Source: Bacilli bacterium (GTDB taxonomy: Bacteria > Bacillota_I > Bacilli_A > RFN20 > CAG-826). Taken from it: 64,000 nucleotides of DNA. The stretch is from positions 8,435 to 72,434 of the forward strand of contig JAFSNY010000042.1 of the NCBI GenBank assembly GCA_017447305.1, written 5' to 3'. Positions 4,081 through 49,570 of this stretch are shown here, piece by piece. Below the pieces are notes generated by a model. The model saw nothing but the letters and a program-made list of their open reading frames with translations, was not told where the DNA came from and did no database searches. Numbering within the stretch: position 1 is the first letter of the stretch; every line of letters begins with the position of its first letter. The position numbers and the translations under genes were made by a program.

Positions 4081-6288
4081 TTAGAAGGTAACGAGACTAT
4101 CCTTTCTCTTTTCATCTTCGGTAAGTTCTTCATAAGGAACGATATCGTGATGTTTTTTGCCTAAATCGTTACGGGATGATTTGTTATTAGAGCCAGAATA
4201 GATATAACCCTTACTTCTCATCCAAGCATTCCACCTCTTATGTTCTAAGAGTTCGATGACTTTCTTTTCATAGTCGCTTCTTTCTGCTTGAGGCTTATCG
4301 GTGCCAGGAATGCGACAATGAATCTTCGCACGTCTATGAATCACCGTTGCGCATGAAGATAAGTAATTATATTCGTACATATAGAACTCAAAGATAGCAG
4401 TTTCCACTTCTGCACGTGTCTTGGAGTATTCGACATGCGCACGTTTTGCTTCTTCTTCAAGTTCGGAGCCTAAGATGGATGCGACGGAATAAGCTTCTTC
4501 GTCATCACCAATGAAGGTGATGTCGTATGGTTGTTTCTTGTGGTTGATGGCGTCTAAAGTGATATCATCACTTGTATCTTGGACAATCGCATTAATGATT
4601 GGATGGAGTCCGTTTCTTTCAAATTGGACGCGGAGTTCAATCGCTGCTTCAATATTGAAGTCATCACCGCCTAAGCAAGTAAAGGCTAAAGATGCATCTT
4701 TAATTTCTGCGAGACGTTTATTGAATTCTTTCGTTTTAATTGGAACACCAGAATGGATGGTAATGTCATATTGAGCATCACCTGGAATAATCTTTTTATT
4801 ATGTTTTTCATCCATGAGTTCAGGACAGAGTCCAGAGAATTTTTCCAAAGCGAGAGGATCACTATCAAAAGCATTAATCTTTAAATAATATCCATCCATT
4901 TGGCAGTACCAGGCAAGAGCCTCTAATAACTGAGTGCCATACATACCTAAACCAACGATGACGATGGAGATAATTTTCTTTCCATCTTTGGTTTCGTATT
5001 TGATATTATCGAAAATCTTTGTTCCTTCGTTATATAGATAACGATATATGAAGAATGTATCGATAGTAACACGTCTTCTTTGAACGCGACATACTTCTTG
5101 ACTTTCATCATCATGATATGGTTTTAAGTGATTGAGGGCTAGTTCACTAGCGGGACTTGTGGAGAAGAGATATAAGGATACATCTTCCCTCTCTTTAAGC
5201 ATCTTAAATAAATCGTAATAATGACGGATATTATCATTTGGCATGGTATGCATGAAGAATAAGGATAATCTTCTTCTTGATTCAGGTGGAATATAATCCG
5301 CGGGTTGATAATCTTTTCTTGTACGATCGATGACACTTAAGAATTCATTAAGTTCTTCATCAACTTGTTTGATGGATAAAGCTCCTTCAACCGCTGCGAC
5401 GAAAGCGTCATATTTTTCTTTAGCGGTGTCTTCATGGAGTTCATGATTTTTTCTAAGATCGTTAAGGAAATTAGTTCCTTCTTCAAGAGCTTTTTTCTTT
5501 CTTGATTCAAGAAGTTCAGGGGTTTCAACGACACTATTTTCTTTCTTTTCATCTTTGATGATTTTGACATTGTTGTTTTTCTTACCAAAATTAATGGAGG
5601 TAATTTCTTTAGCAAAAAGAATGGCGTCGATTTCGTTAGCGCGATCGACTAAATCAGAGTCCTCATCTTCTTCCTTTTGATTGACTTCACAAAAGATAAT
5701 GGCGATTTTTTGTTTTTTCTTTTTTTCTTTGTTTTCTTGATAGATAGATTCTGCTAAGAGGATAGATTTACGGTTTAATTCTGAGAAACAATAAACACTG
5801 TAGTTCTTGCTTCTAATACAGCGACGGAGACGAAGTCTCACCCAGAAGCCACGAATGATGGTTGCAATGAAAGCAAATGTTAGTAATGGCGCGGATACAT
5901 AGATAAGAATGCTAACTGCATAATAAAAATATCCAAACCACGACCAGCTATCTTCTTGACGGATGATATCTTCGACGACATGTTGGACTGGTTCGAAGTC
6001 TCCATCGAGAATGAATAATCTAAAACTATTATGGAGAGAGAAACCAATCGTTTCTATGACACCCATGAAAATTCTTCCTGGACGACCTCCAACATCTTCT
6101 TTAAAGAAATCATTCCAATATATTGGAACAAACATTGTAATGGCCGCGAGGATTAAGCCGGCACCAAAAATATAAACAGCGTATGATTTATGCTTCTTGT
6201 TTCTTTTTAAAAAGCGAATAGCGAATATTCCAGCTGTTAAAAATACAAGAAGCGCGATAATTGCGGAAGAAAAAATAAACCAAATCAT
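4081..6288 (-). CDS. Multi-pass membrane protein with a Rossmann-like NAD(P)-binding-type domain and a C-terminal RyR (ryanodine-receptor) domain
   Basis: Three to four N-terminal transmembrane helices are followed by a GxGxxG-like VIVGLGMYG segment. The C-terminus (EHKRWNAWMRSKGYIYSG...IVPYEELTEDEKRKD) matches the RyR-domain pattern. The gene ends 2 nt before the start of the downstream lipoprotein gene, so it is likely operonic with it. Confidence 0.55.
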   Translation of the reverse strand: MIWFIFSSAIIALLVFLTAGIFAIRFLKRNKKHKSYAVYIFGAGLILAAITMFVPIYWNDFFKEDVGGRPGRIFMGVIETIGFSLHNSFRLFILDGDFEPVQHVVEDIIRQEDSWSWFGYFYYAVSILIYVSAPLLTFAFIATIIRGFWVRLRLRRCIRSKNYSVYCFSELNRKSILLAESIYQENKEKKKKQKIAIIFCEVNQKEEDEDSDLVDRANEIDAILFAKEITSINFGKKNNNVKIIKDEKKENSVVETPELLESRKKKALEEGTNFLNDLRKNHELHEDTAKEKYDAFVAAVEGALSIKQVDEELNEFLSVIDRTRKDYQPADYIPPESRRRLSLFFMHTMPNDNIRHYYDLFKMLKEREDVSLYLFSTSPASELALNHLKPYHDDESQEVCRVQRRRVTIDTFFIYRYLYNEGTKIFDNIKYETKDGKKIISIVIVGLGMYGTQLLEALAWYCQMDGYYLKINAFDSDPLALEKFSGLCPELMDEKHNKKIIPGDAQYDITIHSGVPIKTKEFNKRLAEIKDASLAFTCLGGDDFNIEAAIELRVQFERNGLHPIINAIVQDTSDDITLDAINHKKQPYDITFIGDDEEAYSVASILGSELEEEAKRAHVEYSKTRAEVETAIFEFYMYEYNYLSSCATVIHRRAKIHCRIPGTDKPQAERSDYEKKVIELLEHKRWNAWMRSKGYIYSGSNNKSSRNDLGKKHHDIVPYEELTEDEKRKDSLVTF

Positions 6289-6400: not shown

Positions 6401-8329
6401 TTATTTATTTAACGCAAGAGCGATTAGTTCATTGATATCTTGGATGAATTCCAGTTTATCAAATTTATCATATCCTTCTAAGAGGAGAGCTTCCGCATAA
6501 AGAATTGAAGCATACTTCTTAACCATTTCATCATCATTTTCAATATTTGTGAAGGCGATAAAGAGAGGGTGGCCTGGATTAAGTTCAAGAACCTTGGATG
6601 ATTTAACTTTTTCTCCATCCACTTCTTGTTCGTTAAGGGTCTTTTCCATCTCTAAGGAGAGGCCTTCTTTTGTCGAAATACATACAGGTGCGTCCACGAG
6701 CTTAGAGGAGATGATAACATCATCAACATTATCCTTCAATGCCTCTTTTAAGGTATCGATGAGACGACGGTGAGTCACTGTGACATTTTCGACTTTTTCT
6801 TTCTCTTCTTCACTCGATTCATTGACGTCATCTGAGGAGACGGATTTGAAAGCTTTCTTATCATATTCTCCAAGCATCATCACCGCGAATTCATCGATCT
6901 TTTGGTCGAGGAGAAGGACGTCGATTTCTTTCTTTTTATATTTCTCTAATTGAGGGAGAAGTCTAATTGAAGCGAGATTACTACCAGAAATATAATAGAT
7001 ATCTTTTTGGTCTTTTTTCATCGCCTCAACATATTCTTTTAAGGAGATATAAGCATCATCTTTAAGAAGTGAATGGAACACTAATACATCTTGTAATAAA
7101 TCTTTCTTTTGTCCATATGTTGAATAGATTCCGTATTTGATATGCTCTCCAAAATTCTTCCAGAACTTCTCAAATTTTTCTTTGTCGTTATCCTTCAATT
7201 CCTTGATTCTCGCGACGATTTTCTTTTCTAGGTTCTCCGCGATCACTTTTAAGATTGGGGAAGATTGTAAGATTTCACGGGAGATATTGAGATTAAAAGC
7301 GTCGGAATCCACGACTCCTTTAACGAACTTCAAATAATCAGGAATGAGCTCTGGGCATTTCTCTTTGATGAATACTTCTTTAGAGTATAATGCGAGTCCT
7401 TTTTCATAATTATCACTATAGAGGTTATATGGCTGGTGAGATGGAATAAACACTAACGCGCGGTAGTTAACTTTACCTTCGATATCGAGACGAATCGATA
7501 ATAAAGGATCTTCATAATCTTGGAATTTAGATTTATAGAAATCGTTAAGTTCCTCTTCAGTAACTTCACTCTTATTTTTCTTCCAAATTGGGACCATGGA
7601 ATTGAGGGTTTCATCTTCGATTATCTCATCATATTTACCTTCAATTTCCTTGCCATCTTTATCTAATTTAGGCTTACTTTTCTTAACCTTCATTTTGATT
7701 GGATAACGAATGTAATCTGAATACTTTTTGACAAGTTCACGAATCTTATATTCTTCTAAATAGGCATCGAAATTTTCATCTTTATCTTTCTTTAGATAGA
7801 TGATGATATCACTTCCGTGACCTTCTCTTTTGCTTTCTTCAATCGTGTAAGAATCTTTACCATCACTAGTGAATTTGTATGCTTCTTGATTGTGTTTTTT
7901 GGTGATGACTTCGACTTTAGACGCCACCATAAAAGCGCTATAGAAACCAACACCAAATTGGCCGATGATATCGATGTCCTTACTTTCTTTAGCTTCTTTA
8001 AACTTTTTGATGAAATCTTTTGATCCACTTCTAGCGATTGTGCCTAAGTTTGAGGTGATTTCATCTTTATCCATTCCTATTCCATTATCGGAGATGGTGA
8101 TTGTTCTTTTCTTTTTATCGATAGAGATTCTAATTTCACCATCATCAATTGGTAATTCTCCTTTACTATTGACGGAGAGATAACGATATTTATCAATCGC
8201 ATCAGAGGCATTAGAAATCATTTCTCTTAAAAATACTTCATGGTTTGAGTAAATGGAGTTGACCATCAAGTTTAAAAGTTCTTTACTTTCCGTTTCGAAT
8301 TGTTTTGTTTCTTTCATTTTAGATAACAC
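6401..8329 (-). CDS. htpG: Molecular chaperone HtpG (Hsp90)
   Basis: The 642-aa ORF carries the Hsp90 N-terminal ATPase signature (NHEVFLREMISNASDAIDK) and Hsp90-like sequence to the C-terminus. Confidence 0.95.
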   Translation of the reverse strand: MLSKMKETKQFETESKELLNLMVNSIYSNHEVFLREMISNASDAIDKYRYLSVNSKGELPIDDGEIRISIDKKKRTITISDNGIGMDKDEITSNLGTIARSGSKDFIKKFKEAKESKDIDIIGQFGVGFYSAFMVASKVEVITKKHNQEAYKFTSDGKDSYTIEESKREGHGSDIIIYLKKDKDENFDAYLEEYKIRELVKKYSDYIRYPIKMKVKKSKPKLDKDGKEIEGKYDEIIEDETLNSMVPIWKKNKSEVTEEELNDFYKSKFQDYEDPLLSIRLDIEGKVNYRALVFIPSHQPYNLYSDNYEKGLALYSKEVFIKEKCPELIPDYLKFVKGVVDSDAFNLNISREILQSSPILKVIAENLEKKIVARIKELKDNDKEKFEKFWKNFGEHIKYGIYSTYGQKKDLLQDVLVFHSLLKDDAYISLKEYVEAMKKDQKDIYYISGSNLASIRLLPQLEKYKKKEIDVLLLDQKIDEFAVMMLGEYDKKAFKSVSSDDVNESSEEEKEKVENVTVTHRRLIDTLKEALKDNVDDVIISSKLVDAPVCISTKEGLSLEMEKTLNEQEVDGEKVKSSKVLELNPGHPLFIAFTNIENDDEMVKKYASILYAEALLLEGYDKFDKLEFIQDINELIALALNK

Positions 8330-8375
8330 TCCTCGATACTCTATTTCGTATCAGCGACTATATTGTAAATCCTTG

Positions 8376-8402
8376 TTAGCACTCTGTCAATGAGATTGCT
8401 AA
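8376..8402. promoter_or_regulatory. CIRCE-like inverted repeat (HrcA operator) in the htpG upstream region
   Basis: TTAGCACTC-N9-GATTGCTAA matches the CIRCE consensus TTAGCACTC-N9-GAGTGCTAA at 17 of 18 positions. It lies 47 nt upstream of the htpG start. Confidence 0.6.
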
Positions 8403-8419
8403 AAATTGTGTATTTTCTT

Positions 8420-8451
8420 TTAAAGAAAAAGAGGGTCCGATTTGGACCCTC
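8420..8451 (-). terminator. Rho-independent terminator after nagB
   Basis: Hairpin GAGGGTCC-gattt-GGACCCTC followed by TTTTTCTTT on the minus strand. Confidence 0.55.
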
Positions 8452-8468
8452 AAATAGTGTTTTCTCTC

Positions 8469-9191
8469 TTATTTAACCAAGCTATAAGCATCTTCATCGA
8501 CATAGATTGTGCAATCTGGATGGTCTTGAAGAATGGAGCATGGGACATCTTCAGTTTTTGGTCCGAGGAGTAAATCACGGATGGCTTTAGCTTTGTTTTT
8601 ACCAGTGGCGATTAAGACAATCTTTTTCGCATTCATAATGCTCTTAAGACCCATGGTGACCGCTTTGGTAGGAACTTCAGAGATATCGTTGAACAAACGG
8701 GAGTTATCTCTAATTGTGCTTTCGGTAAGTTCAGCGATATGAGTTAAGGAATCAAATGGTGTGCCTGGTTCGTTAAAGGCGATATGTCCATCACTACCAA
8801 TACCTAAGATTTGTAAGTCAATTCCACCAAAGGAAGCGATTTCGTCATCATATTGATTCATATATTCGATATAGTTACCAACGCCTTTTAAGACGTGGGT
8901 TTTACTCTTATCGATGTCAATATGATCGAAGAGGTTATCGTTCATAAAGTAACGATATGATTGATTGTGAGTTCCTTCTAAGCCAACATATTCATCAAGG
9001 TTAAAAGTCGCAACATCTTTAAATGTGACTTTTCCTTCTTTGTTAGCTTTCACTAAATTGGCGTACACCTTTAAAGGTGAGGTACCAGTCGCTAAGCCTA
9101 AAACGGAATTTGGTTTAGCGTTAACTTGTTTGATAAATTCATCAGCGATTAAACGGCTGATCATGTCTTCATTTCCAACGACGAGTTTCAT
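8469..9191 (-). CDS. nagB: Glucosamine-6-phosphate deaminase
   Basis: 240 aa with the NagB/6-phosphogluconolactonase fold signature (GLATGTSP...). Confidence 0.9.
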   Translation of the reverse strand: MKLVVGNEDMISRLIADEFIKQVNAKPNSVLGLATGTSPLKVYANLVKANKEGKVTFKDVATFNLDEYVGLEGTHNQSYRYFMNDNLFDHIDIDKSKTHVLKGVGNYIEYMNQYDDEIASFGGIDLQILGIGSDGHIAFNEPGTPFDSLTHIAELTESTIRDNSRLFNDISEVPTKAVTMGLKSIMNAKKIVLIATGKNKAKAIRDLLLGPKTEDVPCSILQDHPDCTIYVDEDAYSLVK

Positions 9192-9198
9192 GAAATAA

Positions 9199-9879
9199 TT
9201 ACCTTTCTTCTTTATTTACAACAACGTTATTTTGTTTGACAATTGAATTTTCTGGGTAGCATCCTCTTAAGAATGAAAGAGGATAAACTTGAGTGTGTTT
9301 TCCAACAACGGTTCCTGGATTAAGGACGCTTCCACATCCAATATCAGCATAATCTCCTAAGATTCCACCGATTTTACGGAGTCCGGTTTCATAATCCTTA
9401 TCACCATGGATGACGATGTTTTTACCATCGCTTTTAAGATTGGAACAAATTGATCCAGCACCCATATGGGAATGACTTCCTAAGATGGAGTCACCAACAT
9501 AATTATAATGTGGGACTTGAACGTGATAGAGAAGGATGCAGTTTTTTAATTCTGAAGAATTGCCAACGACACAATTTTCTCCAATAATGACATTTCCTCT
9601 AAGGAAAGCGCCTGGTCTAAGTTCAGTTCCACTTCCGATAATCGCTGGAGCTTCGATGGTGACAGTTTTCGCCATCTTGACATTTTCTCCAACGAAGATA
9701 CCTGGTTCGATTTCCTTATATCCTTTTAAACCATTAGCGATTTCTCTTTTAATGATTTCTTTGATTTTTGGGAGAAGTTCCCATGGATATGTGGCTTTTT
9801 CGAAGTCTTCTTTCAAGAAGGAGATTGGGCATTCTTCGAATAATTCTTTAGTTAAGATATTGTACTTATTCACAGACAT
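9199..9879 (-). CDS. Left-handed beta-helix (hexapeptide-repeat) acetyltransferase, resembling the GlmU C-terminal domain; possible sugar-1-phosphate N-acetyltransferase
   Basis: Hexapeptide repeats run throughout. I trimmed the start to the internal ATG at 9879, which has an AAAGAGAGG RBS and abuts the glmM stop. The 9981 start given in the ORF track would overlap glmM by 115 nt. Confidence 0.6.
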   Translation of the reverse strand: MSVNKYNILTKELFEECPISFLKEDFEKATYPWELLPKIKEIIKREIANGLKGYKEIEPGIFVGENVKMAKTVTIEAPAIIGSGTELRPGAFLRGNVIIGENCVVGNSSELKNCILLYHVQVPHYNYVGDSILGSHSHMGAGSICSNLKSDGKNIVIHGDKDYETGLRKIGGILGDYADIGCGSVLNPGTVVGKHTQVYPLSFLRGCYPENSIVKQNNVVVNKEER

Positions 9880-11503
9880 AACCTCTCTTTTTGATAACGT
9901 TATAAATCTTTTCAATATAAGCGTCACACTCTTTGATTGTTGGGCATTCCACCATAATACGGACAACTGGTTCGGTTCCACTTTGTCTTAATAAGGCACG
10001 ACCATTATCTCCGATTTCCTTATTAACTTCTTCGAATTTAGCTTTGACAGCTTCATCATCGACTACCGCGGCTTTATTCGTAACACGGACGTTTTTAAGT
10101 CTTTGTGGTAATAAGTGAACTGGAGCGACGAGCTTAGATAATTTTTCTTTTCTTTCTAAGACTTCTTCGGTGACCATGATGGCGGTTAACACTCCATCAC
10201 CAGTTGTCGCATATTTCTTAATGATAACGTGACCAGATTGTTCTCCACCTAAGGAATAGCCTTCTTCTTGCATCTTTTCAAAGACGAAGCGGTCTCCAAC
10301 TTTAGTTTGAACATTCTTAATTCCCACTGCTTTTAAAGCTTTGGTTAAGCCAGAGTTCGACATGATGGTCGTGACAAGTGTATCTTTAGATAAGGCACCT
10401 TCGCTCTTAAGTTTAACAGCGAGGAGATACATGATTTTATCACCATCGACTTCGTGACCATTTTCATCAACGGCGATACAACGGTCACAGTCACCATCAA
10501 AGGCGAATCCTAAGTCAAGTTTGTTATCCTTAACGTATTTGCATAAGACATCAATATGGGTGCTTCCGGCATCTAAGTTGATGTTTAGGCCATTTGGTTC
10601 ATTATTAATAATGAATGTTTGAGCGCCTAAGGAATCAAAGACGCTTTTTGCAATCATCCAAGCCGCACCATTAGAGGTATCTAAACCAATCTTAAGGTTA
10701 CGCATGGAGTGTCTTGCTAAAGAGATGAGATATCCGACATAACGGTTACGTCCACTGGTAAAGTCGGTGATACTTCCAACTTCTTCTCTAGCGGCAAATG
10801 GAAGGTCATCTCCTTCAACGCCGAGCATAGCGAAGTTACCATCGATATACGCTTCAATTAAGACAGCGACGGAATCTTCGAGTTTTTCACCATCGCAGTT
10901 AATGACTTTAATACCATTATCATAAAATGGGTTATGTGAAGCGGTGATCATGACACCACAATCGAAGCAATCTTGTCTAACGATATAAGAGACGCTTGGT
11001 GTAGTTGTAACGTGAAGTAAGAAGACATCAGCACCGGAAGCGGCTAAGCCAGCAGCAACAGCGTATTCTAACATGTAGGAAGAACGTCTGGTGTCTTTGC
11101 CGATAACCACTCTTGGACGATATCCTGGTTTTTGTAAATTGAATTTTTGATTACCATAGAACCAACCTAAGAAACGACCAATTTTATAAGCGTGATCACA
11201 TGTTAAGACTTTGTTGACCTCGCCTCTAAATCCATCAGTGCCAAAATATTTAGTTTTGATATCTTCACCGATACTTTGTGGAAGTTTCTTTCCGCGGTGG
11301 ATGACGATATTATCATCAAGGAGTTCATCAGTGGTAATTTTAAAAATCTTCGATAACTCTAAAATCTTGTCAATCGTTGGGAGTGATTCATCACTTTCCC
11401 ATTTGGAAATGGATTGACGGGAGACATTAAGCATCGAAGCTAATTTTTCTTGTGAGATGTTGTTCACAATTCGAAGGTGAACGATTTTTTCCCCAATAGT
11501 CAT
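9866..11503 (-). CDS. glmM: Phosphoglucosamine mutase with an N-terminal XRE-type helix-turn-helix domain fused in frame
   Basis: Residues 1-65 have an HTH_XRE signature (ISQEKLASMLNVSRQSISKWE...). The rest is canonical GlmM (GTDGFRG, the active-site motif ASHNPFYDNGIK). A GGAGG RBS precedes the ATG. Confidence 0.85.
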   Translation of the reverse strand: MTIGEKIVHLRIVNNISQEKLASMLNVSRQSISKWESDESLPTIDKILELSKIFKITTDELLDDNIVIHRGKKLPQSIGEDIKTKYFGTDGFRGEVNKVLTCDHAYKIGRFLGWFYGNQKFNLQKPGYRPRVVIGKDTRRSSYMLEYAVAAGLAASGADVFLLHVTTTPSVSYIVRQDCFDCGVMITASHNPFYDNGIKVINCDGEKLEDSVAVLIEAYIDGNFAMLGVEGDDLPFAAREEVGSITDFTSGRNRYVGYLISLARHSMRNLKIGLDTSNGAAWMIAKSVFDSLGAQTFIINNEPNGLNINLDAGSTHIDVLCKYVKDNKLDLGFAFDGDCDRCIAVDENGHEVDGDKIMYLLAVKLKSEGALSKDTLVTTIMSNSGLTKALKAVGIKNVQTKVGDRFVFEKMQEEGYSLGGEQSGHVIIKKYATTGDGVLTAIMVTEEVLERKEKLSKLVAPVHLLPQRLKNVRVTNKAAVVDDEAVKAKFEEVNKEIGDNGRALLRQSGTEPVVRIMVECPTIKECDAYIEKIYNVIKKRGYVCE

Positions 11504-11526
11504 TTTGAACCTCCGGCAATTGTTAG

Positions 11527-11537
11527 TTGCACTGCAA
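11527..11537. promoter_or_regulatory. Palindrome TTGCA-C-TGCAA between the glmM -10 box and its RBS; candidate operator for the fused HTH domain
   Basis: An inverted repeat with 5-bp arms lies 3 nt downstream of the -10 box of the promoter below, overlapping the predicted transcription start. Confidence 0.35.
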
Positions 11538-11540
11538 ATA

Positions 11541-11568
11541 ATAATATCGACTTTTTATACGTAGTCAA
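11541..11568 (-). promoter_or_regulatory. Sigma70-type promoter for the glmM-acetyltransferase-nagB operon
   Basis: Read on the minus strand: -35 TTGACT, a 16-nt spacer, -10 TATTAT. Confidence 0.45.
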
Positions 11569-11620
11569 CATTTATTTAATATTTTTTTATCAATGTAAAG
11601 TAATGTTTACACTAGTCTTA

Positions 11621-11649
11621 ACAAAAAGAGCGAGATGCTAATCCCGCTC
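11621..11649 (-). terminator. Rho-independent terminator after the ABC-2 permease gene
   Basis: Stem GAGCG/CGCTC followed by TTTTTGTT on the minus strand. Confidence 0.45.
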
Positions 11650-11668
11650 CGAAGATGATATTGATAAT

Positions 11669-12361
11669 TTAAAAATCAACTTGTTCTAACTCTTTTGAGG
11701 CTATTTTATGCGTGATGATATGAAGAAGCACATAGATAATAAGTGCTGAACCAAGGACGATAAATTGATATCCAATCCCACTTTTACAGAGGAACTCTTC
11801 ATACCATAGGCAGCCTGGGAGATTTGGAATAATAATGGTGAAAATCGCTAGATAAATAACATATCCAATAATCATTAATAATGTCGATAGGACGATAGAT
11901 TTTCCGTTTTTATAATAGACGAGGAAATAGATTAAATCAGCGATAGCAAATCCAATTAAAGAAATGCCTAATATAGATACATATCCATCTAGCCCTAGCA
12001 TATGGAAAGTTACCGCACTTTCACTTTCGCTCGGAGGAATACTTGAGTCTATGAGTAATGCGAGAGGATATAAAGCGGTCATGATAAGTGTAAAGATGAT
12101 ATGCATGATGATAACCGTGAAGATTCTCGCAAGGACAATATCTCTTTTTCTGATCGGAAGGAGGGTTGAGAAAAGCAAATCGTTGCTTTGTTGTCCTTTA
12201 TTCGCTCCTAAGAAAAGAATTGGGTAAGTGGTTAAGACATAGATAAATCCAACCGCTGGAGGATAGGAAGGAATCAAAATCATAAGTGGGAAAACAATGA
12301 TAAAGACATAGCAAATTGGATGCATTGCTAGTTTGAATTCTTTATAAAGTAAAGCTTTCAT
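11669..12361 (-). CDS. ABC-2 family transporter permease
   Basis: 230 aa with six predicted transmembrane helices. Its start overlaps the end of the upstream ATPase gene. Confidence 0.6.
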   Translation of the reverse strand: MKALLYKEFKLAMHPICYVFIIVFPLMILIPSYPPAVGFIYVLTTYPILFLGANKGQQSNDLLFSTLLPIRKRDIVLARIFTVIIMHIIFTLIMTALYPLALLIDSSIPPSESESAVTFHMLGLDGYVSILGISLIGFAIADLIYFLVYYKNGKSIVLSTLLMIIGYVIYLAIFTIIIPNLPGCLWYEEFLCKSGIGYQFIVLGSALIIYVLLHIITHKIASKELEQVDF

Positions 12362-13512: not shown

Positions 13513-14961
13513 TTATTTATATTCGAATGTTTCTTCGACTCGATATTTCTTATTATCATCTTGAAAGATGAATTCATCGATGATGCGTGTTTGTTTATTG
13601 ATGTCGAGCGGCACTAGATAGATCGGATTCTTTTCATCATCGTCATCGATAACAGAGCCAAAGAGAATGAGATATTTTCCATCGACACTGATGTATTCAA
13701 TTGAATAGAATTCACCATTTCCAACCACTATGGAACGGCAATCTCTTTTATCTAAATCGGGGTTAACGATTTCTTTTGTTTCATCAAAGATATATGCTTC
13801 ATCTTCGATACAAAATGATGTTGTGCGAATTGAAAGAGTTTTATCGAGTTTGGTTTTACCCATGATAAATTTTCTTAAGGTGATTTTCATTTCGCCAACA
13901 CGTCTACTAGTTGGTACTTTTTTATCCCTGACATAGTCAAAATCGAGATTAATCGATTCGTTCATCCCTAATGTGTATTCTTTGATTTCTCCTCCATAAT
14001 TAACCGAGAAAGTCACTTCTTCATTTTCTTCATCTGAATTTAAGATTTTAAAAGTATCAGGGAAATTGGGGATAAATGGAGGATCGTCATCATAAACGAG
14101 GATTGCGTATCTTCCTTCTGCGAAGCTTTCATCCGGATGATTTGGCCATCTCGCATAAAATTCCACTTCTAAAACATAATGTTCATACGCTCGATCTTCT
14201 TTTTTAATTTCCGCATTTCCTAAATCAAGATTAATAAAATCTAAAACGTTATTAACAATTATTGGCTCTCCTGGTTCTAAAATAGCTTGAATAACAACTG
14301 TGAAATACTGTGAATTATTGATAATTTGATTTTTGAGATAATATTTTCCATCTGGAGAAATAGAACATGATACCTCTTCCGCGCTGGTGAAATGTTTAAC
14401 GAGATAATCGGCATATTTAAACATCTCCGCTCCGCACGCTTCAAGTTCTTCTTTAGTAATATTTCTCCAATCATAAACAACAAAAGCGAGGTTTGGATAT
14501 TCTTCTACATAATAGACTTTAGGTTTTGTTGGAAAGGACGGAAGGATCGGATTAATTCCATATTTTTCTGAAAATGACGCTAGTTCAGCAGGGCTTCCTC
14601 CACTAATCTTTCCTTCTGTAAGATAGAGATAGAGGATATCAACTTCACCTACTTCCAAAGGAAGAGGGTTGAATTTATCATCAGTTTTAACAAGAATCAT
14701 ATCAGATGCGAGGAAATCATAGCCAGAAATACGGCACGCTAATTCGTTGTTATCTTTGTCAGATCTTTCCATGTAGCGGTCGACAAAACCAATTAAATGA
14801 ATACCTAGTTTATTGGATAAATCTTGTGTTTTGATTGTATGAATAGTCGATAAACCTTCCGCTTCTATCGCATCTTCTAGTCCGCGATAATCAGAATCGA
14901 ATTCGACTTCAAGTTTTAAAACTTCACCATTTGTTTTAATTAAAACTGCATTGAAAGACAT
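13513..14961 (-). CDS. Hypothetical cytoplasmic protein
   Basis: 482-aa ORF with no signal peptide or transmembrane helix and no motif I can recognise. Codon usage is consistent with its neighbours. Confidence 0.5.
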   Translation of the reverse strand: MSFNAVLIKTNGEVLKLEVEFDSDYRGLEDAIEAEGLSTIHTIKTQDLSNKLGIHLIGFVDRYMERSDKDNNELACRISGYDFLASDMILVKTDDKFNPLPLEVGEVDILYLYLTEGKISGGSPAELASFSEKYGINPILPSFPTKPKVYYVEEYPNLAFVVYDWRNITKEELEACGAEMFKYADYLVKHFTSAEEVSCSISPDGKYYLKNQIINNSQYFTVVIQAILEPGEPIIVNNVLDFINLDLGNAEIKKEDRAYEHYVLEVEFYARWPNHPDESFAEGRYAILVYDDDPPFIPNFPDTFKILNSDEENEEVTFSVNYGGEIKEYTLGMNESINLDFDYVRDKKVPTSRRVGEMKITLRKFIMGKTKLDKTLSIRTTSFCIEDEAYIFDETKEIVNPDLDKRDCRSIVVGNGEFYSIEYISVDGKYLILFGSVIDDDDEKNPIYLVPLDINKQTRIIDEFIFQDDNKKYRVEETFEYK

Positions 14962-17281: not shown

Positions 17282-19252
17282 CTAGGAATTTTTGGCTTCT
17301 AATTTTCTCTTTTTACGTTGGTTTTTGGAAATCTTACGTTTTGATACAAAATAGATAGCGACTCCTGCTGCAGCGAGGACTTCAGCGATGAAGAGAATAA
17401 TGGCCCAAGTTGGGAATTCACCTGATTTAAAGTCTTCCCAAAGTTCAAGGATATATTTGTTATTCTCTCCGAAGTCTTGCATGATGCAGCAACGGATGAT
17501 TGTTTCTTCGTCTGGATATTGACAATAGAAGTCTCCTCCGACCGCTAAACCATCAGGGTGTTCATCATCACAGTCGACATAATAATCTTCAGCGTAGAAA
17601 ATCATATCGCTAGCTTGATATTTATCCGTTGGGAGTGTTCCATCGAAGAAATATGATAAGTCGACTTCGAAGAGTTCACTGTCATCACTATCGACGATGG
17701 TTAAGTCAGCGTAAGTCTTATGTGTTTCATCTTCGTTTAAGACGTTATATAACTCATCATCAAACTCATACATCAATTCTTCATCATCCAAAGCGTCGTT
17801 ATGAGAATCAGTTAAGAAGTCGGAATAATCGAGTTCACGATATTCTTCACCATCTTTAACTAAGATAGTGACTTCTTCTTCAACTTCCACTTCTTTACCT
17901 TTTTCATCAGTGTCGGTGTAGACATGTGTTGTATACATTTCTGATGTACGATAATCATACCATTCTCTAATGAGACCTAGGATATCTTCACCAGCGATAA
18001 AGGATGTATATCCGATATAATCCATATTCTTTTTGGCGTTTTCTGGATCAGAGATGAAGTTTAAGAACTCTTGAGCGAGTAATTTTTGATCAGCGGTTCG
18101 GTTATTATTTTTAGGCATAACCCAACCATCAAACCAAATGTTTGCACCTTCTTCTGGGACAGAATAATAAAGGGTTGTTTCATCGTAATCATAGGCTTGG
18201 CTCATCGCGTATACTGCATCACCACTCCAGGCTAAGTTGATACCAATTTTACCAGTGACGATATCGTTTTTACCGCTATCGACTTCTAAGCCAAAGATGT
18301 TGCCTTTTAATTCGATTAATTCTTTATAGATAGCTTCTCTTGTTCCACTATCAAATTTATATTCTTTGTCCGAATCAGCAGGATTGGAATAGAGATTAAA
18401 AATCTCATTAATACGACTGTTATATTCATCTTTGTCGATTAATCCGTTGACGTAATCTTCTCTAAAGGATAGAAGTTGTTCTTCGTGATGTTTCATATCG
18501 ACAACAGCAAGGGTATCTCTGATGGAGTTTTTAATGGAGATAGTTCCATCATATTGCTTATCCCATAGCGCTGAATAATGACGTAAATCAAAGATGATTT
18601 GTTCTTCTTTAGCCGCTTCTAATTCTTCTTCACTTAATTGATCAGCGTTTTCGATTTCGATTTTGTAGTTATTAAATGTTGGGTTAAAGAGAATTCCTAG
18701 AGTTCCCCACATATATCCAACACAGTAATCTTCAAGTTTCTTCACTTCACCACTTGGAAGTGTGGCTTCGATGTTATCTAAGAAACTAGAGATAGTTGGC
18801 GAACAATAATCACGATAGTTAGGAACAAAGTCACGATCAATTTCTTCAAGCATCCCTTCTCCAAGCATCTTTTGAATCATGTAGTCACTTGGGCAGATTA
18901 AATCAATTCTGGTTTTACCTGTTTTAACTTCGTTATACATTGATTCAGGAGTGTCTGAAGTGCTATAGGAAACTGAAACATGTTTTCCATAGAATGGACT
19001 ATTTGGATTATTTTCTGCATAATCGACGAATTGATCAACTAAGTCCTCTTCTTCATATCCATTTTCAACATCTTTAATGTAGATGTAGTCCGCGCAGTTA
19101 ACGACGTTAATGGAGGTATATTCTCCAACATCAGGTGTTGAAGCAGATGCGACTTTCTTGACTTTGCTGGTGTTAGAAAGAGCGAAGGTAAATGCGCTAG
19201 CACCTAAAAGGATAGCGATTGATGATAAGACAAGGATATTATTCTTTTTCAT
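17282..19252 (-). CDS. potD: Spermidine/putrescine ABC transporter substrate-binding protein, an extended PotD-like protein with a C-terminal transmembrane anchor
   Basis: I trimmed the start to the ATG at 19252 (MKKNN...), which has a GAAAGGGGAGAG RBS and lies 1 nt from the potC stop. The protein has an N-terminal signal sequence and PotD-family similarity. The final 40 aa form a hydrophobic helix plus a Lys/Arg-rich tail. Confidence 0.75.
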   Translation of the reverse strand: MKKNNILVLSSIAILLGASAFTFALSNTSKVKKVASASTPDVGEYTSINVVNCADYIYIKDVENGYEEEDLVDQFVDYAENNPNSPFYGKHVSVSYSTSDTPESMYNEVKTGKTRIDLICPSDYMIQKMLGEGMLEEIDRDFVPNYRDYCSPTISSFLDNIEATLPSGEVKKLEDYCVGYMWGTLGILFNPTFNNYKIEIENADQLSEEELEAAKEEQIIFDLRHYSALWDKQYDGTISIKNSIRDTLAVVDMKHHEEQLLSFREDYVNGLIDKDEYNSRINEIFNLYSNPADSDKEYKFDSGTREAIYKELIELKGNIFGLEVDSGKNDIVTGKIGINLAWSGDAVYAMSQAYDYDETTLYYSVPEEGANIWFDGWVMPKNNNRTADQKLLAQEFLNFISDPENAKKNMDYIGYTSFIAGEDILGLIREWYDYRTSEMYTTHVYTDTDEKGKEVEVEEEVTILVKDGEEYRELDYSDFLTDSHNDALDDEELMYEFDDELYNVLNEDETHKTYADLTIVDSDDSELFEVDLSYFFDGTLPTDKYQASDMIFYAEDYYVDCDDEHPDGLAVGGDFYCQYPDEETIIRCCIMQDFGENNKYILELWEDFKSGEFPTWAIILFIAEVLAAAGVAIYFVSKRKISKNQRKKRKLEAKNS

Positions 19253-19253
19253 A

Positions 19254-20102
19254 TTAGTCTCTCCCCTTTCTAACTTTTGCTTGTTTAGATTTATGAATGT
19301 TTCTAATCGTGATGATAATAACAGCGACAACAACAATTAAGAAAATAATTGTCGTTAAGGCGCGTAATTCTGGAGGTACTGGTCTTTTGGCAATATGAGA
19401 TTGAACATATGTTGAGATTGTTTCAATCTGAGAATTGCCACTGAGGAGTCCGGCGCCTCTGGTGAACTGGGTGATGACAAAGTCATCAAGTGATAAGGTA
19501 ATCGCAAGTAAGAAACCAGATAAGACACCTGGCATAATTTCAGGAATAATAACTTTTCTTAAAGCTTGCATTGGAGTCGCTCCTAAATCAAGAGCAGCTT
19601 CATAAACGCTTGGATCCATTTGTTGAAGTTTTGGTTTAACGGAAATATAGACAAATGGAATCGATAAGACAACGTGACCAATTAATAAGGTCCAATAAGA
19701 AGCGATTTCATTATGGAAGACATATGTGCCGATGAAAGTGAACATGACGCAGAGAGATAAAGCCATAACGATTTCCGCGTTAACGATTGGGATTTGGGTA
19801 ACGTTATCGTAAAGGGACTGCCATTTCTTCTTGGAATAGAAAGAACCAAGAGCGCCTATAGAACCAAGGACAACACTGACGAAAGCGCTGGTGAAGGCAA
19901 TAATGAAGGTATTACCAACAGCAACCCAGATTTCTCTTGATGTTAAGAGGTTTTTATATAAACCAAAGGAGAATCCGCTCCACTGTCCAACTTGTTTTGC
20001 CGTAGTAAAGGAGAAAACAATGAGGACGAGGACTGGCAAGTACATGAGGAGAAGGACTAACCAGATATAGGTTTGGGCGAGAACTTTTTTAACTTTTACC
20101 AT
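19254..20102 (-). CDS. potC: Spermidine/putrescine ABC transporter permease PotC
   Basis: Six transmembrane helices with the ABC permease EAA-like motif (EAALDLGATP). Confidence 0.85.
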   Translation of the reverse strand: MVKVKKVLAQTYIWLVLLLMYLPVLVLIVFSFTTAKQVGQWSGFSFGLYKNLLTSREIWVAVGNTFIIAFTSAFVSVVLGSIGALGSFYSKKKWQSLYDNVTQIPIVNAEIVMALSLCVMFTFIGTYVFHNEIASYWTLLIGHVVLSIPFVYISVKPKLQQMDPSVYEAALDLGATPMQALRKVIIPEIMPGVLSGFLLAITLSLDDFVITQFTRGAGLLSGNSQIETISTYVQSHIAKRPVPPELRALTTIIFLIVVVAVIIITIRNIHKSKQAKVRKGRD

Positions 20103-25600: not shown

Positions 25601-28600
25601 TTAGAATAAGCAAATGTCATCGAAAACTAAGGCATTGGCGGAACCATTCCAGTTTGAGATATTGAAGTTATAGATTGCTCCATAATTGAATCCCATACAG
25701 CAATATGTCCAACCACCGGCTTTGGCAGTTAAGTTACCAATTTCTTGTGCACCACTTAAACCAGTGCTGTTGTAAACCCAAGTTCTTAAAGTGATGTCAT
25801 TTTCTGAAGAGTTATAAACCCAGAATCCGATGTTTTTATAAGCGGTTGCGGTTTCAAGATCATTAAGCATTGATAAGCCAACAACATTATTTGTTCCACC
25901 GTAAGGTCTAACACTCATAGCACCTGTTCCACCAACAAAGTTGGTTTCATCTCTCATGATTCTATCAGTATGATCTTCATTATTATCAACTGTCCAACCA
26001 GTAGAAGTTGTTCTGTAACGACGTTGGAATTGTTCTCTTAATTCATCGGTTGTTCCATCACAGTTGAAATAAACTGGGGCAGCACCAAGAGTTAAGGCAC
26101 CATTGTTTTCAAGGACAGCAGCGGCCGGGCCATCAACACCAACATTGACTAAAGCATTGGCATCTGGATCATAGGTAGCAGTTAAGTTACCATATCTAAC
26201 ATCTTCTAAATCGATGGTAACAAGACCAGTGGCTTTAGCGTAGGTATAAGTTGTTGTGAGTTTAACGGCATCGCCAATTCTGACGTATGCTTTTTCGTTT
26301 GCTAAAGCTAAGACAACGAAAGTATCTGCGCTTTCAATGTTAACGTGACCAGAGAAGTTTCCAACTGGGAGTGGGAGTTCTTCGACTGGTGGTTCTTCTC
26401 CGCCTTCAGCGGCTTTATAAACGATAGTAACGCTATAAACGGCTAAGTTGGAGCCATCACAGGCAAGGGTTGCGCTGGCTTTATCTCCTGCAATAGTCAT
26501 ATTCCCATCAGCAGGTTCTCCCCACCAGCTGCCAGTATAAACGGCATAATTTATAGTCGCGGAAACGATTTCGTATCCTTCTGCTAATGTAGCAGTAAGG
26601 GAAGCTGTACCAGAATTATAAAGTCTGATTTGGAATCCATAGTCATTGGATTTATAAATTTTTCCGGAGTTGCCATCTGTTGCAGAAACAGCAAGAGTAA
26701 CAACTTCATCAAGAGCTTTTGATGTGAATTTGACTGATCCGCCAGTGTAAGAAGCATCTGGATCAGCAATCATATCGACAGCAGCAAATGTAGCGGTAAC
26801 GTTTTCGCTTTCTCCACCGCCACTACCTTGTGGGATGATTGCGGTGATAACGCCTTTACCTTGGACGGTGCCATTATAGTCAGCACGGATTAATTTCATG
26901 GTGACGGAATCACCAATAGCAAGAGCGTTGGTTGCTTCAGTTGTAAGGAAGTCTTGTGGGTTTGTGAAGGCATAAGCACTTGCATTATCCCAAGCAAGAG
27001 CTGAAGCGGTCATGGTTGAACCATAGATGACTAAATCATTTTCGCCATCGGTTAAGACCATGTTACCATATTTATCTTTTGTTTCACCGTCTTTGAAGGA
27101 CTTAATTTCTGCAGTGACATTATAGGCTTTTGCAGCACTGTTTTCTAAAGCGATGAATTCAGCTAAGGTCTTGGTTGTAACGGCTGGTTCTGGGACTTTC
27201 CAAGCTTCACCAGCTTCAACGACTGTGACATCATCAGCGGTAAGAGCAAGTAAGTTTTCAGCTTGACCATGATAATTCTTAACAATGGTTGTAACTTCGA
27301 CTAAAGCGCCTTCTAATAATATGGCGAGTAAGTCTGCATCTTTAACATTGTAAAGTTCAAAGGCGTTGCTGTAATATTTCTTGCTTGAACCACCATGGGC
27401 ATCATCAGCAGAGGCTTGAACTAATTCTTCACCCTTAGTAGCGGTTAAGAAGAAGTTTGAGCCAGATTTAGCAGTGACGTAACCTTGGAATTTGTAGTAA
27501 TCGTAGGTATCGGCGCCATCAGCTAAAGCGGCGTTAACATCTAATACTTCAGCAAATGTTGCATCGATAGTTTGTCTAGCTTCTGGTTTGTTTCCTTCAC
27601 AAGAAACTAAAACGGCAGATTTGGTTTCATATTGGTTTGAACCATCATAGTAGGTGAATGCGCCATAAGCGACAACAGTACCACCAACCCAAATGTCATC
27701 ATCGGTTAATGGGGTATTGCTTGTATCTTTGAAGCATAAGTAGACTTCAAATTTTGCTCCACCTTCAGTGGCTGGTTGTAAATAGAATGAGACAGCACCA
27801 TCAGGTCTTGCGCCAGGTGCGTGATAGAATGATGAAACGACACCAGTGACATAGAATTTTTCAGTGGTGAATCCACCATTATCCTTTAGCCATGCGCCTG
27901 CTTTAAGAGCATCTTCGTTGGTGAATGGATCATCAGCGGTACCTTCATGATCAGTACCAAATTTTTCTTTGTTTGTTACTTTTGCGGTAATTTCAACATC
28001 GACAAAGTCGGTGGCATCATGGTAAGAAACAGTGATTGTCGCTGTACCAGCACCAACGGCGTGGACGTTTTTACCTATAATGGTAGCGACATCTTCATCA
28101 CTTGATTCGAAGGTGATTTCGCCATCATTAATAAGTTTTGTAATGTTTCCGGCTGGTTCGATTTCGAGAGATAAAGCACGGTCAGCATCGCCAACCACCC
28201 ATTCAGCTCTCATATCATCTTTATTCTTAATGGTGATGGAATAATCGATAGCTGGTTCAGATTCTTCTTCGGAGCCTGGTAATTCGGACTCTTCTTCGGA
28301 AACTGGTAATTCAGAGCCTGGTTCACTTTCAGGTGGTAAAACTTCACTACCTTCGGAGACTGGTAATTCTTCACTACCTGGTCCAAGTTCAGATTCAGGT
28401 GGTAATTCTTCACTACCCTGTTCTGAGACTGGTAATTCAGAGCCTGGTTCACTAACTGGTTCTTCAGATGGAACGAGAGATTCTTCTTCAGATTCTGCTT
28501 CAGATGGAACGAGAGATTCTTCTTCGGACTCTGCTTCAGATGGAACGAGAGATTCTTCTTCGCTTTCTTCTTCAGAAACTGGAGCAGGAATGCTTTCTTC

Positions 28601-28732
28601 TTCTGAAGGTTCAACGATTGATGAATCTTGTTCGGATGTCTGACTTTCTGATGGTGTCACTTTTTTCTTACCACAGCCGACAAGTGTTAGTAAGCACACC
28701 AATGAAAGAGGCAATAATAATCCTTTTTTCAT
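25601..28732 (-). CDS. Large surface lipoprotein (1043 aa) with an acidic repeat linker and Ig-like/beta-rich domains; adhesin-like, function unknown
   Basis: Lipobox LVGC↓G. An (EEESLVPSEAES)n linker is followed by a Big_2-like segment. The protein is Thr/Gly/Ala-rich and has no catalytic motifs. Confidence 0.6.
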   Translation of the reverse strand: MKKGLLLPLSLVCLLTLVGCGKKKVTPSESQTSEQDSSIVEPSEEESIPAPVSEEESEEESLVPSEAESEEESLVPSEAESEEESLVPSEEPVSEPGSELPVSEQGSEELPPESELGPGSEELPVSEGSEVLPPESEPGSELPVSEEESELPGSEEESEPAIDYSITIKNKDDMRAEWVVGDADRALSLEIEPAGNITKLINDGEITFESSDEDVATIIGKNVHAVGAGTATITVSYHDATDFVDVEITAKVTNKEKFGTDHEGTADDPFTNEDALKAGAWLKDNGGFTTEKFYVTGVVSSFYHAPGARPDGAVSFYLQPATEGGAKFEVYLCFKDTSNTPLTDDDIWVGGTVVAYGAFTYYDGSNQYETKSAVLVSCEGNKPEARQTIDATFAEVLDVNAALADGADTYDYYKFQGYVTAKSGSNFFLTATKGEELVQASADDAHGGSSKKYYSNAFELYNVKDADLLAILLEGALVEVTTIVKNYHGQAENLLALTADDVTVVEAGEAWKVPEPAVTTKTLAEFIALENSAAKAYNVTAEIKSFKDGETKDKYGNMVLTDGENDLVIYGSTMTASALAWDNASAYAFTNPQDFLTTEATNALAIGDSVTMKLIRADYNGTVQGKGVITAIIPQGSGGGESENVTATFAAVDMIADPDASYTGGSVKFTSKALDEVVTLAVSATDGNSGKIYKSNDYGFQIRLYNSGTASLTATLAEGYEIVSATINYAVYTGSWWGEPADGNMTIAGDKASATLACDGSNLAVYSVTIVYKAAEGGEEPPVEELPLPVGNFSGHVNIESADTFVVLALANEKAYVRIGDAVKLTTTYTYAKATGLVTIDLEDVRYGNLTATYDPDANALVNVGVDGPAAAVLENNGALTLGAAPVYFNCDGTTDELREQFQRRYRTTSTGWTVDNNEDHTDRIMRDETNFVGGTGAMSVRPYGGTNNVVGLSMLNDLETATAYKNIGFWVYNSSENDITLRTWVYNSTGLSGAQEIGNLTAKAGGWTYCCMGFNYGAIYNFNISNWNGSANALVFDDICLF
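28463..28565. repeat. 36-bp tandem repeat of about 2.8 copies within the lipoprotein linker; the same ~45-nt block recurs in the lipoprotein gene at 30650-30700
   Basis: The unit TTCAGATGGAACGAGAGATTCTTCTTC(A/G)GA(T/C)TCTGC is repeated head to tail and encodes VPSEAESEEESL. Confidence 0.6.
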
Positions 28733-46857: not shown

Positions 46858-47201
46858 AAGTTTTCTCCTTTTTTAAAAACTAACTTTATTTTATTATAAA
46901 TGCGCGAAATATAAATCATATTTTTTAAAAAGTTTCATCCACGACTTTTGTTGCCTAAATCTAAGTATTCTCTTGTTTTTATCCTTCAAGATATACCGAT
47001 TTCCTAGGTATCTTATCCCACATTAAAAAAGTTAAAAAAATGCTTGATTTTTAGTAGTTTGGACAGTGTCTAAATTATGTAAAAAATGTCTTGGTAATCG
47101 GTGTTAATTATATATATTATTATTGCACACACTTCGTGGAGGGTTGGGGGACCCGTGCGAAGTTGAAATCCATAATAATTTACATATCGGGGGTAGAACA
47201 A

Positions 47202-49565: not shown

Positions 49566-49570
49566 GAATT

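Follow-up and report, generated by a model that had tools for sequence, protein, structure and literature searches.

The gene described here lies in a stretch of 64,000 nucleotides from a contig of a Bacilli bacterium (hereafter the window), and encodes a phosphoglucosamine mutase (GlmM) that carries a helix-turn-helix (HTH) domain of the XRE (Cro/C1) family at its N-terminus. The coding sequence (HTH-glmM) occupies positions 9866-11503 of the minus strand, begins with ATG, has its stop codon at 9866-9868, and specifies 545 amino acid residues, as defined by the list of open reading frames (ORFs) together with the Pfam and NCBIfam matches. The HTH domain, with five helices, comprises residues 1-65 (11309-11503, minus strand; Pfam HTH_3/HTH_19 and the AlphaFold2 (AF2) model). 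It is followed by a linker of predicted coil, residues 66-84 (11252-11308, minus strand; AF2 model and conservation), and by a complete GlmM core with PGM_PMM domains I-IV, residues 85-545 (9869-11251, minus strand). A preliminary description of the locus had noted an uninterrupted reading frame from the HTH into GlmM, and this is confirmed here.

The HTH domain is matched by HTH_3 (PF01381) over residues 14-61 (E value 9e-13, 48.4 bits against a cutoff of 23) and by HTH_19 over residues 4-63 (42 bits against a cutoff of 30.2). All four domains of the mutase (PGM_PMM_I-IV) are found between residues 85 and 534, with E values from 2e-15 to 3e-37. The glmM equivalog model TIGR01455 aligns with residues 87-538 over positions 1-441 of its 442, and the score of 498.4 bits exceeds the cutoff of 447.55. 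In the alignment with the GlmM of Bacillus subtilis (7OJR, E value 4e-120), residue 3 of that protein is paired with residue 85 of the query, where the alignment begins, and the approximately 82 residues at the N-terminus are therefore a true addition. The phosphoserine loop TASHNPFYDNGIK (TASHNP) is present, with the codon of Ser189 at 10937-10939, as are the metal loop FDGDCDR, the sugar loop GGEQSGH and the phosphate loop RQSGTEP. By its domains, the equivalog cutoff, its loops and its fold, which are all the membership tests available, the protein is a GlmM, and its mutase activity is predicted. As read from its sequence, HTH-GlmM is a single polypeptide in which an XRE-type DNA-binding domain is joined through a flexible linker of about 20 residues to a mutase predicted to be catalytically competent.

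The preliminary description had also stated that no in-frame ATG separates the HTH from the mutase, and the result is stronger than that statement. The only methionines among the first 200 residues are at positions 1, 24, 144 and 185, and codons 41-100 contain no ATG, GTG or TTG. Across 49 loci, no internal start preceded by a Shine-Dalgarno (SD) sequence is conserved. Production of a stand-alone GlmM from an internal start is thus ruled out, and each GlmM molecule made from HTH-glmM carries the HTH. No second glmM is found in the 64-kb window.

The AF2 model has a mean pLDDT (predicted local distance difference test) of 85.4, and the mutase core is confidently predicted. The core has the same four-domain fold as the canonical GlmM structures from B. 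subtilis (7OJR), Staphylococcus aureus (6GYZ) and Bacillus anthracis (3PDK), with TM-scores (target) of 0.91-0.96, root-mean-square deviations of 2.0-3.0 Å, and 42-47% identity by Foldseek. The chains of these proteins start at the equivalent of fusion residue 83-85, and the solved GlmMs have no DNA-binding domain, in contrast to the fusion. The helices of the HTH span residues 3-13, 18-25, 29-36, 44-54 and 58-62, with pLDDT means of 83-95 over blocks of 10 residues. Residues 63-84 have no secondary structure; the block means fall to 74 (residues 61-70) and 46 (residues 71-80), and residues 76-81 are below 50. The linker nevertheless holds a clade-conserved (I/V)VIHRG motif. The closest relatives of the HTH in the Protein Data Bank are the Xre-family regulator of ICEBs1 (7T8I) and the N-terminal domain of the P22 c2 repressor. 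HTH domains of the same subtype (MTIGEKI...SQE.LAE.L.VSRQSVSKWE) are also fused to multi-pass membrane domains (P0168, P0227 and P0231), and the GlmM-fused HTH therefore belongs to a widely reused N-terminal module of Firmicutes.

The fusion is not limited to the window. The same arrangement of HTH and mutase is present in all 120 database matches listed, which are 81-90% identical to the window protein and nearly all 545 residues long. A scan of species-representative genomes provided a sample of 47 loci with 76-86% identity (clade 1). These loci are all from uncultured metagenome-assembled genomes labeled Bacilli, Bacillales or Erysipelotrichaceae, and for many of them the isolate name indicates an origin in the rumen or in another compartment of the ruminant gut. 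The gene is covered in 45 loci, which come from independent, species-level assemblies, and all 45 have an unbroken fused ORF that begins at the same ATG. A search with residues 1-140 returned divergent fragments spanning the junction, and led to a second clade. The full-length fusions of clade 2 have 538-540 residues and about 60% identity to the window protein, are labeled 'Clostridia bacterium' or 'Lachnospiraceae bacterium', and bear the NCBI name 'phosphoglucosamine mutase'; nearly all the clade 2 matches listed have both the HTH and the mutase parts. The search with residues 1-140, made against representatives at 50% identity, otherwise found mostly proteins with multiple HTH repeats.

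A frameshift or an assembly artefact, which the preliminary description had named as a possible refutation, is ruled out by the 45 intact ORFs, the 120 listed matches and the second clade, and the N-terminal extension is present among orthologues of both clades. That the fusion is real and conserved is, on these sequence comparisons, practically certain. With two clades and many matches, it is common in public data, where the full-length proteins are annotated only as an enzyme. Matches of 140-290 residues with 'HTH plus PGM_I only' were considered as a new truncated family and rejected, as those examined are partial genes at contig ends, one frameshifted contig (L054; loci are identified by L numbers) and one disrupted lineage (L052/L053).

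Both parts of the protein are under constraint. Within clade 1, the pairwise identity is 68% for the HTH compared to 83% for GlmM, and the median ratio of nonsynonymous to synonymous substitution rates (dN/dS) is 0.15 for the HTH compared to 0.07 for GlmM domain I. The value of 0.15 indicates clear purifying selection on the HTH. The recognition helix is S28-R-Q-S-I-S-K-W-E36, and Arg29, Gln30, Ser33, Lys34, Trp35 and Glu36 are invariant among 60 sequences from the two clades. Further residues of the HTH that are invariant in both clades are Met1, Lys6, Ile7, Leu10, Arg11, Gln18, Pro42, Asp59 and Leu61. The catalytic residues Ser189, Asp336, Asp338, Asp340, Arg341, Glu421, Gln422, Arg506, Ser508 and Gly509 are likewise invariant in the 60 fusion proteins.

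The upstream region of HTH-glmM contains a predicted sigma-70-like promoter on the minus strand, with a -35 box TTGACT (11563-11568), a spacer of 16 nucleotides (nt) and a -10 box TATTAT (11541-11546). The two boxes match the consensus at 10 of 12 positions, and the transcription start site (TSS) is predicted near 11534. The SD sequence GGAGG is at 11510-11514 (minus strand). Two candidate operators flank this promoter. The distal one (11594-11611) is a perfect 18-bp palindrome, TGTAAA-N6-TTTACA, centered at about -68 from the predicted TSS, and the exact motif has a single copy in the window. The proximal one (11515-11531) has 17 bp, reads TGCAAC-N5-ATTGCC on the minus strand, is centered at about +11.5, and abuts the SD sequence; an additional TTGCA half-site is located beside it, at 11533-11537. 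The preliminary description had pointed to the palindrome TTGCACTGCAA (TTGCA-C-TGCAA) in this region. It is indeed present at 11527-11537, but the unit that is conserved is another one. Of the two halves of TTGCACTGCAA, TGCAA (11527-11531) alone is part of the conserved 17-bp proximal site, with the other half adjacent to it, and the best-conserved site (11594-11611) is 80 bp further upstream.

Alignment of the 170 nt upstream of the ATG finds little conservation apart from two palindromes, motifs A and B. Motif A is TGTAAA-N6-TT(T/A)ACA, with an A-rich spacer and unconserved flanking columns. With at most one mismatch, it is present in 40 of 46 clade 1 loci, compared to 0.4% of shuffled sequences. 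Motif B is YGYAAC-N5-RTTRCR and abuts the SD sequence. An unbiased enumeration of all 5-mer inverted repeats in 50 upstream regions, for which the maximum with shuffled sequences was 5, singled out just these two palindrome families. The repeats were GTAAA-N6-TTTAC (21 loci, the top repeat), TGTAA-N8-TTACA (13 loci), GCAAC-N5-GTTGC (11 loci), TGTAA-N7-TTACA (7 loci) and CCGCA-N9-TGCGG (7 loci). Several proximal sites are hybrids of A and B (TGTAAAccaaaaTTTACA in L031, TGTAACtcattaTTTACA in L018/19, TGTAACtaaacGTTACA in L003 and TGTAACtacaaGTTGCA in L016), which joins the two motifs in one family, TGYAA-N7/8-TTRCA.

The density of exact copies of this generalized site is 2.70 per kb within the 200 nt that precede the fusion, compared to 0.009 per kb for 644 kb of flanking sequence, an enrichment of approximately 300-fold at the fusion promoter. 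When one mismatch is allowed, a site is present in 49 of the 50 loci, and 24 loci contain at least two. A wider regulon was considered and rejected, with one exact distal motif in the window and six exact generalized sites in the 644 kb of flanks. Of these six, the one inspected is intragenic, and three, in related loci, share a homologous position about 5.3 kb upstream. Exact TGTAAA-N5-(T)TTACA is additionally found in the clade 1 loci L015, L036, L039 and L040 (at -161, -174, -179 and -183 from the ATG, respectively). Located some 80-90 bp upstream of the usual distal position, this extra site suggests a third operator in those lineages.

The positions of the sites were measured relative to the best predicted promoter of each locus. 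The distal site is centered at about -52 in 15 loci, with a gap of 7-10 nt to the -35 box, at about -62 in 8 loci, with a gap of 18-19 nt, and at -68 to -71 in the window, L001 and L002. These steps of 10 bp among the distal centers point to helical phasing. For 14 loci, a promoter and a proximal site could both be assigned; in 11 of them the proximal center falls between +11 and +12.5, and the remaining three are probably miscalled promoters. The distances between distal and proximal centers are about 63.5, 73.5 and 80-84 bp. In clade 2, a distance of about 21-22 nt separates GCAAC-N5-GTTGC from the predicted -35 box downstream of it, and a further GTTGC half-site abuts this box; L055 has a perfect motif A as well, farther upstream.

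HTH-glmM is the first gene of a conserved operon on the minus strand. Its 5' boundary is marked by a terminator-like hairpin of the upstream ATP-binding cassette (ABC) transporter genes (11627-11650, minus strand), and its 3' end by a terminator-like hairpin at 8431-8451 (minus strand; sequence scan). The second gene (9199-9879, minus strand) overlaps the 3' end of glmM by 14 nt, and encodes a stand-alone left-handed beta-helix (LbH) acetyltransferase, similar to the C-terminal part of GlmU and to archaeal ST0452. It matches only the C-terminal acetyltransferase half of the NCBIfam model Arch_glmU (positions 211-390), and among solved structures it best matches the C-terminal domain of Sulfolobus tokodaii ST0452 (2GGO/5Z09, E value 4e-22). 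From these similarities the product is predicted to be a glucosamine-1-phosphate (GlcN-1-P) N-acetyltransferase, which would use the product of GlmM. The nucleotidyltransferase half is absent from the protein and a uridylyltransferase partner was not found in the window; these organisms appear to synthesize UDP-N-acetylglucosamine (UDP-GlcNAc) with a split GlmU. The last gene is nagB, for glucosamine-6-phosphate deaminase (8469-9191, minus strand; TIGR00502, 269 bits against a cutoff of 236.9).

The LbH gene follows glmM in all 45 clade 1 loci and in every clade 2 locus fetched (L054-L060). The nagB gene is linked to the fusion in 38 of the 45 clade 1 loci, being downstream in 31 and immediately upstream, in divergent orientation, in 7 (L028-L030 and L032-L035); in the other 7 it was not seen within the sampled flank. 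In all seven loci with divergent nagB, a motif A half, TTTACA, is itself the -35 box of the best nagB promoter, with a 17-nt spacer and a perfect TATAAT, so that a protein bound to the motif would occlude this promoter. Clade 2 shares the module. In L055/L056 (9177-11006), a glmS gene (609 residues, with GATase and SIS domains) lies only 83 nt downstream of nagB on the same strand, and its expression may in this lineage be controlled together with that of the fusion operon. No glmS ribozyme was found in L055, and no Rfam element near the operon in L055, L057 or L059, at the Rfam gathering threshold. The outer flanking genes vary between loci, and consequently no other regulator gene is conserved nearby. 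The arrangement usual in other Firmicutes is cdaA-cdaR-glmM, and it is not seen around HTH-glmM. The hexosamine module is mobile but coherent. LbH, NagB and GlmS are predicted to be metabolically coherent with GlmM, LbH using its product and NagB and GlmS making or removing its substrate.

One close clade 2 relative (L061, protein P0476) has a glmM with a different N-terminus of 24 residues and no HTH. It keeps the LbH gene and the same promoter core as L054 (caacagacgcggt, a variable stretch and ttgatataat), but it has no full palindrome, and a lone GTTGCG remains. Although this is a single case, such joint loss would be expected of an HTH and a palindrome that work together. A different perfect inverted repeat, TGACGtgataCGTCA, is found in L061 (4860-4900) upstream of the promoter, where GCAAC-N5-GTTGC would be, and may be the site for another regulator.

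HTH-GlmM is probably a bifunctional protein, being both an enzyme and an autoregulator of its own operon through the palindromes, as the preliminary description had suggested from the domain composition. This suggestion gains support, at the level of sequence, from the purifying selection on the HTH, the invariant recognition helix, the palindromes specific to this promoter, and L061. Solved GlmM is an M-shaped dimer in which domain 4 is mobile, also upon ligand binding (PMC8573169). A dimer of HTH-GlmM would present two HTH domains on linkers of about 20 residues, an arrangement suited to a palindrome of 17-18 bp. The HTHs would bind the TGYAA-N7/8-TTRCA sites flanking their own promoter, the distal one and, where present, the proximal one. 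The regulated operon would comprise HTH-glmM, the LbH gene and nagB, plus glmS in some lineages. Binding would repress transcription, and the enzyme that commits glucosamine-6-phosphate (GlcN-6-P) to UDP-GlcNAc would in this way set gene expression at the hexosamine branch point. Repression is probably the sense of regulation, rather than activation, because of the site at +11.5 and the overlap with the -35 box of nagB. The sites at -52 and -62, in loci with no proximal site, would be compatible with activation.

Several observations weigh against autoregulation by HTH-GlmM. The HTH-less control is one case. The promoters and TSSs are consensus predictions, and no promoter was callable in 13 of the 50 loci. 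Centers at -52 and -62 also suit an activator, leaving the sign of regulation uncertain, and the proximal site is detectable in only about one-third to one-half of the loci. The loci are phylogenetically related and their counts are not independent, though the intergenic DNA outside the motifs is unconserved. Finally, the two motif types differ in spacing (N8 versus N7) and in one base per half-site, and the binding of one protein to both is an assumption.

An extension of the autoregulator proposal concerns the signal. DNA binding by HTH-GlmM may respond to GlcN-6-P, GlcN-1-P or the state of the phosphoenzyme, as in a 'trigger enzyme', and coupling to a ligand would release nagB and the anabolic genes when the substrate is plentiful. 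Such coupling of DNA binding to ligand or phosphorylation is attractive, but is put forward by inference only. The complete version, a metabolite-gated one-component regulator in which the occupancy or phosphorylation state of active GlmM sets transcription at the hexosamine branch point, is a tentative proposal that we consider rather doubtful. If true, it would fill in these rumen Firmicutes the role that elsewhere belongs to the glmS ribozyme, NagR or NagC, and HTH-GlmM would be the first DNA-binding phosphohexomutase.

Another regulator, encoded at an unlinked locus (such as a Crp/Fnr-like protein or another amino-sugar regulator), could instead bind the palindromes, with the HTH having other targets or making protein contacts. 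The positions at -52 and -62 do resemble activator sites, GTAAA-N6-TTTAC shares the 5-N6-5 layout of Crp/Fnr-type sites, and the link between the HTH and the sites is correlative only. However, the roughly 300-fold enrichment at one promoter, with a single copy in the window, is a misfit with a global regulator, and the only off-target site examined is within a gene. Moreover, the sites accompany the fusion in both clades, where the neighboring genes differ, L061 has lost the HTH and the palindrome together, and the length of 17-18 bp fits an HTH of the P22 c2 type. We regard this explanation as unlikely.

In another explanation, the GlmM module is mainly a sensor or dimerization domain of a dedicated amino-sugar transcription factor, and a separate, ordinary GlmM elsewhere in the genome carries out the housekeeping catalysis. 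The protein would then resemble the ROK (NagC), SorC (CggR) and RpiR regulators, which are derived from enzymes. The operon context is specific to amino sugars, with nagB being catabolic, the cdaA-cdaR-glmM arrangement is missing around the gene, and the truncated L052 and HTH-less L061 lineages attest to evolutionary plasticity. On the other hand, sensors derived from enzymes usually lose catalytic residues, whereas every catalytic loop residue is invariant in the 60 fusion sequences and the TIGR01455 cutoff is exceeded. In addition, GlmM domain I is constrained more strongly than the HTH, the gene is translationally coupled to the predicted user of its product, and the window has no second glmM. 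A GlmM module with mainly such a role is, in our estimate, quite unlikely.

The proximal inverted repeat, including TTGCACTGCAA, might also act as a hairpin in the 5' end of the mRNA that affects stability or access to the SD sequence, rather than as a protein operator. In clade 1 the repeat is within the predicted 5' untranslated region beside the SD sequence, and its arms co-vary (TGCAA/TTGCA, CCGCA/TGCGG and TGTAA/TTACA), with occasional G-T pairings, for example in L016. The hairpin of the window, however, has a folding energy of just -3.3 kcal/mol, and an equal or better fold is obtained for 185 of 200 shuffled sequences (z = +1.35). In L031 and L018/19, the proximal site reproduces the distal DNA motif exactly. 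The clade 2 motif, upstream of the predicted -35 box, should not be transcribed, and is thus a DNA element there, not RNA. A known RNA element in the leader (glmS ribozyme or riboswitch) is rejected, with no Rfam match at E values up to 1 in positions 8300-11800 of the window. The weak folding and the clade 2 position favor an operator over a hairpin, which is distinctly improbable as the primary function, and a minor role in mRNA stability is possible.

A last alternative, that the fusion is a neutral or decaying accident with a relic HTH, or an artefact, could appeal to the frameshift in one contig (L054) and the truncated copy in one lineage, but it is effectively refuted by the 45 of 45 intact ORFs from independent assemblies, the HTH dN/dS of 0.15, the invariance of the DNA-contacting residues, and the presence of both parts in all 120 clade 1 matches listed and nearly all those of clade 2.

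Autoregulation by HTH-GlmM would have functional parallels among known enzyme-repressor fusions, namely BirA (biotin ligase with a winged HTH), PutA (a ribbon-helix-helix domain with proline dehydrogenase) and NadR (an HTH with nicotinamide mononucleotide adenylyltransferase). The archaeal RbkR is a riboflavin kinase with a DNA-binding domain (PMC5397151). In these proteins, as in HTH-GlmM, a pathway enzyme bears a DNA-binding domain at its N-terminus, and the enzyme domain is also able to serve as a sensor and oligomerization module; for HTH-GlmM the operators are predicted, at its own operon. The comparison with BirA and PutA made in the preliminary description stands as such a functional analogy, but it does not extend to homology. 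None of the four is homologous to HTH-GlmM in either module, and all four families are absent from its Pfam and NCBIfam matches. The class of HTH (Cro/C1 XRE), the enzyme family and the pathway (hexosamine, cell wall) all differ. Furthermore, ligand-coupled DNA binding is proven in these four proteins, and is only proposed for HTH-GlmM.

The nearest solved relatives of the HTH are the phage-type Cro/C1 repressors (P22 c2, lambda cI, 434 repressor and ImmR of ICEBs1). Their operators are palindromes of similar length (18 bp for P22 c2), several of which are arranged around a promoter, and the candidate operators of HTH-GlmM are palindromes of 17-18 bp with an A-rich central spacer. P22 c2 and related repressors dimerize through their C-terminal domain, and GlmM would therefore take over the dimerizing role. 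In place of the C-terminal dimerization/cleavage domain of the repressors, HTH-GlmM has a metabolic enzyme, and it is chromosomal and metabolic whereas the phage-type repressors serve the immunity of mobile elements.

With regard to its proposed targets, HTH-GlmM shares the logic of NagR/YvoA, NagC/Mlc (ROK) and the glmS ribozyme, which involves nagB and the levels of hexosamine phosphates. NagR/YvoA is an amino-sugar regulator of the GntR/HutC family (PMC2853113). Unlike the NagR/NagC-type regulators, HTH-GlmM has no GntR or ROK domain among its Pfam matches, and sensing would fall to the pathway enzyme. A regulatory role of GlmM as a partner protein is already established, in the inhibition of the cyclic di-AMP cyclase CdaA (PMC8573169).

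The design of an enzyme-fused transcription factor is known; for GlmM, no description of such a fusion was found in the searchable full-text literature. GlmM is at the entry to UDP-GlcNAc synthesis, and a DNA-binding GlmM would newly wire the supply of cell-wall precursors to gene expression. If true, it would add a further case in which an enzyme serves as its own transcription factor. The annotation 'phosphoglucosamine mutase' hides a probable regulator in many abundant uncultured lineages of the ruminant gut. The system is experimentally tractable, with one protein, two short and well-defined candidate operators and an operon of three genes, and natural variants are at hand in the HTH-less form, the divergent nagB arrangement and the operon containing glmS.

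Further variants were observed among the related loci. A truncated derivative of 186-192 residues is encoded in L052 (8001-8561) and L053 (616-1176), in which the HTH and approximately the first 60 residues of GlmM domain I are joined to a hydrophobic tail of unrelated sequence. The upstream palindromes, motif A-like and motif B, are kept, and no remainder of glmM is found downstream. The host is a Clostridia lineage that encodes SpoIIID. The sequences are 98-99% identical across several samples, and thus look like one disruption event; the derivative could be a pseudogene or a stand-alone regulator. In the L054 contig, a single-base frameshift (8600-8620) splits a full-length clade 2 fusion into ORFs of 223 and 310 residues. 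The neighbors of the operon there, a gene for a phage integrase and several small HTH genes, hint at a mobile-element setting. In L057, a 'skipping-rope' RNA (RF02924, 66 bits, E value 6e-14) is located at 693-773 on the plus strand, about 5 kb upstream of the fusion, near genes for a PBECR-domain protein and barnase/barstar-like proteins.

Elsewhere in the window, the region 47091-51194 encodes an anaerobic ribonucleotide reductase (NrdD) of 824 residues, which combines an ATP-cone with a glutaredoxin domain at the C-terminus. Next come a thioredoxin-reductase-like flavoprotein (49571-50476) and, on the opposite strand, a radical-SAM activase similar to NrdG (50499-51194). This cluster suggests a thiol-dependent class III ribonucleotide reductase system. 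At E values up to 1e-5, the minus-strand ORFs 25601-28732 (1043 residues), 39228-41399 (723 residues) and 42573-43730 (385 residues) have no Pfam match, 4081-6288 (735 residues, minus strand) has no NCBIfam match, and 13513-14961 (482 residues, minus strand) has neither. Three solute-binding proteins of the SBP_bac_8 family (17282-19336, 31117-32886 and 32939-34789, minus strand) are unusually long, with 589-684 residues. They belong to two ABC sugar-transporter clusters, the ATPases of which are long as well, having 518 residues (with a TOBE domain) and 641 residues.

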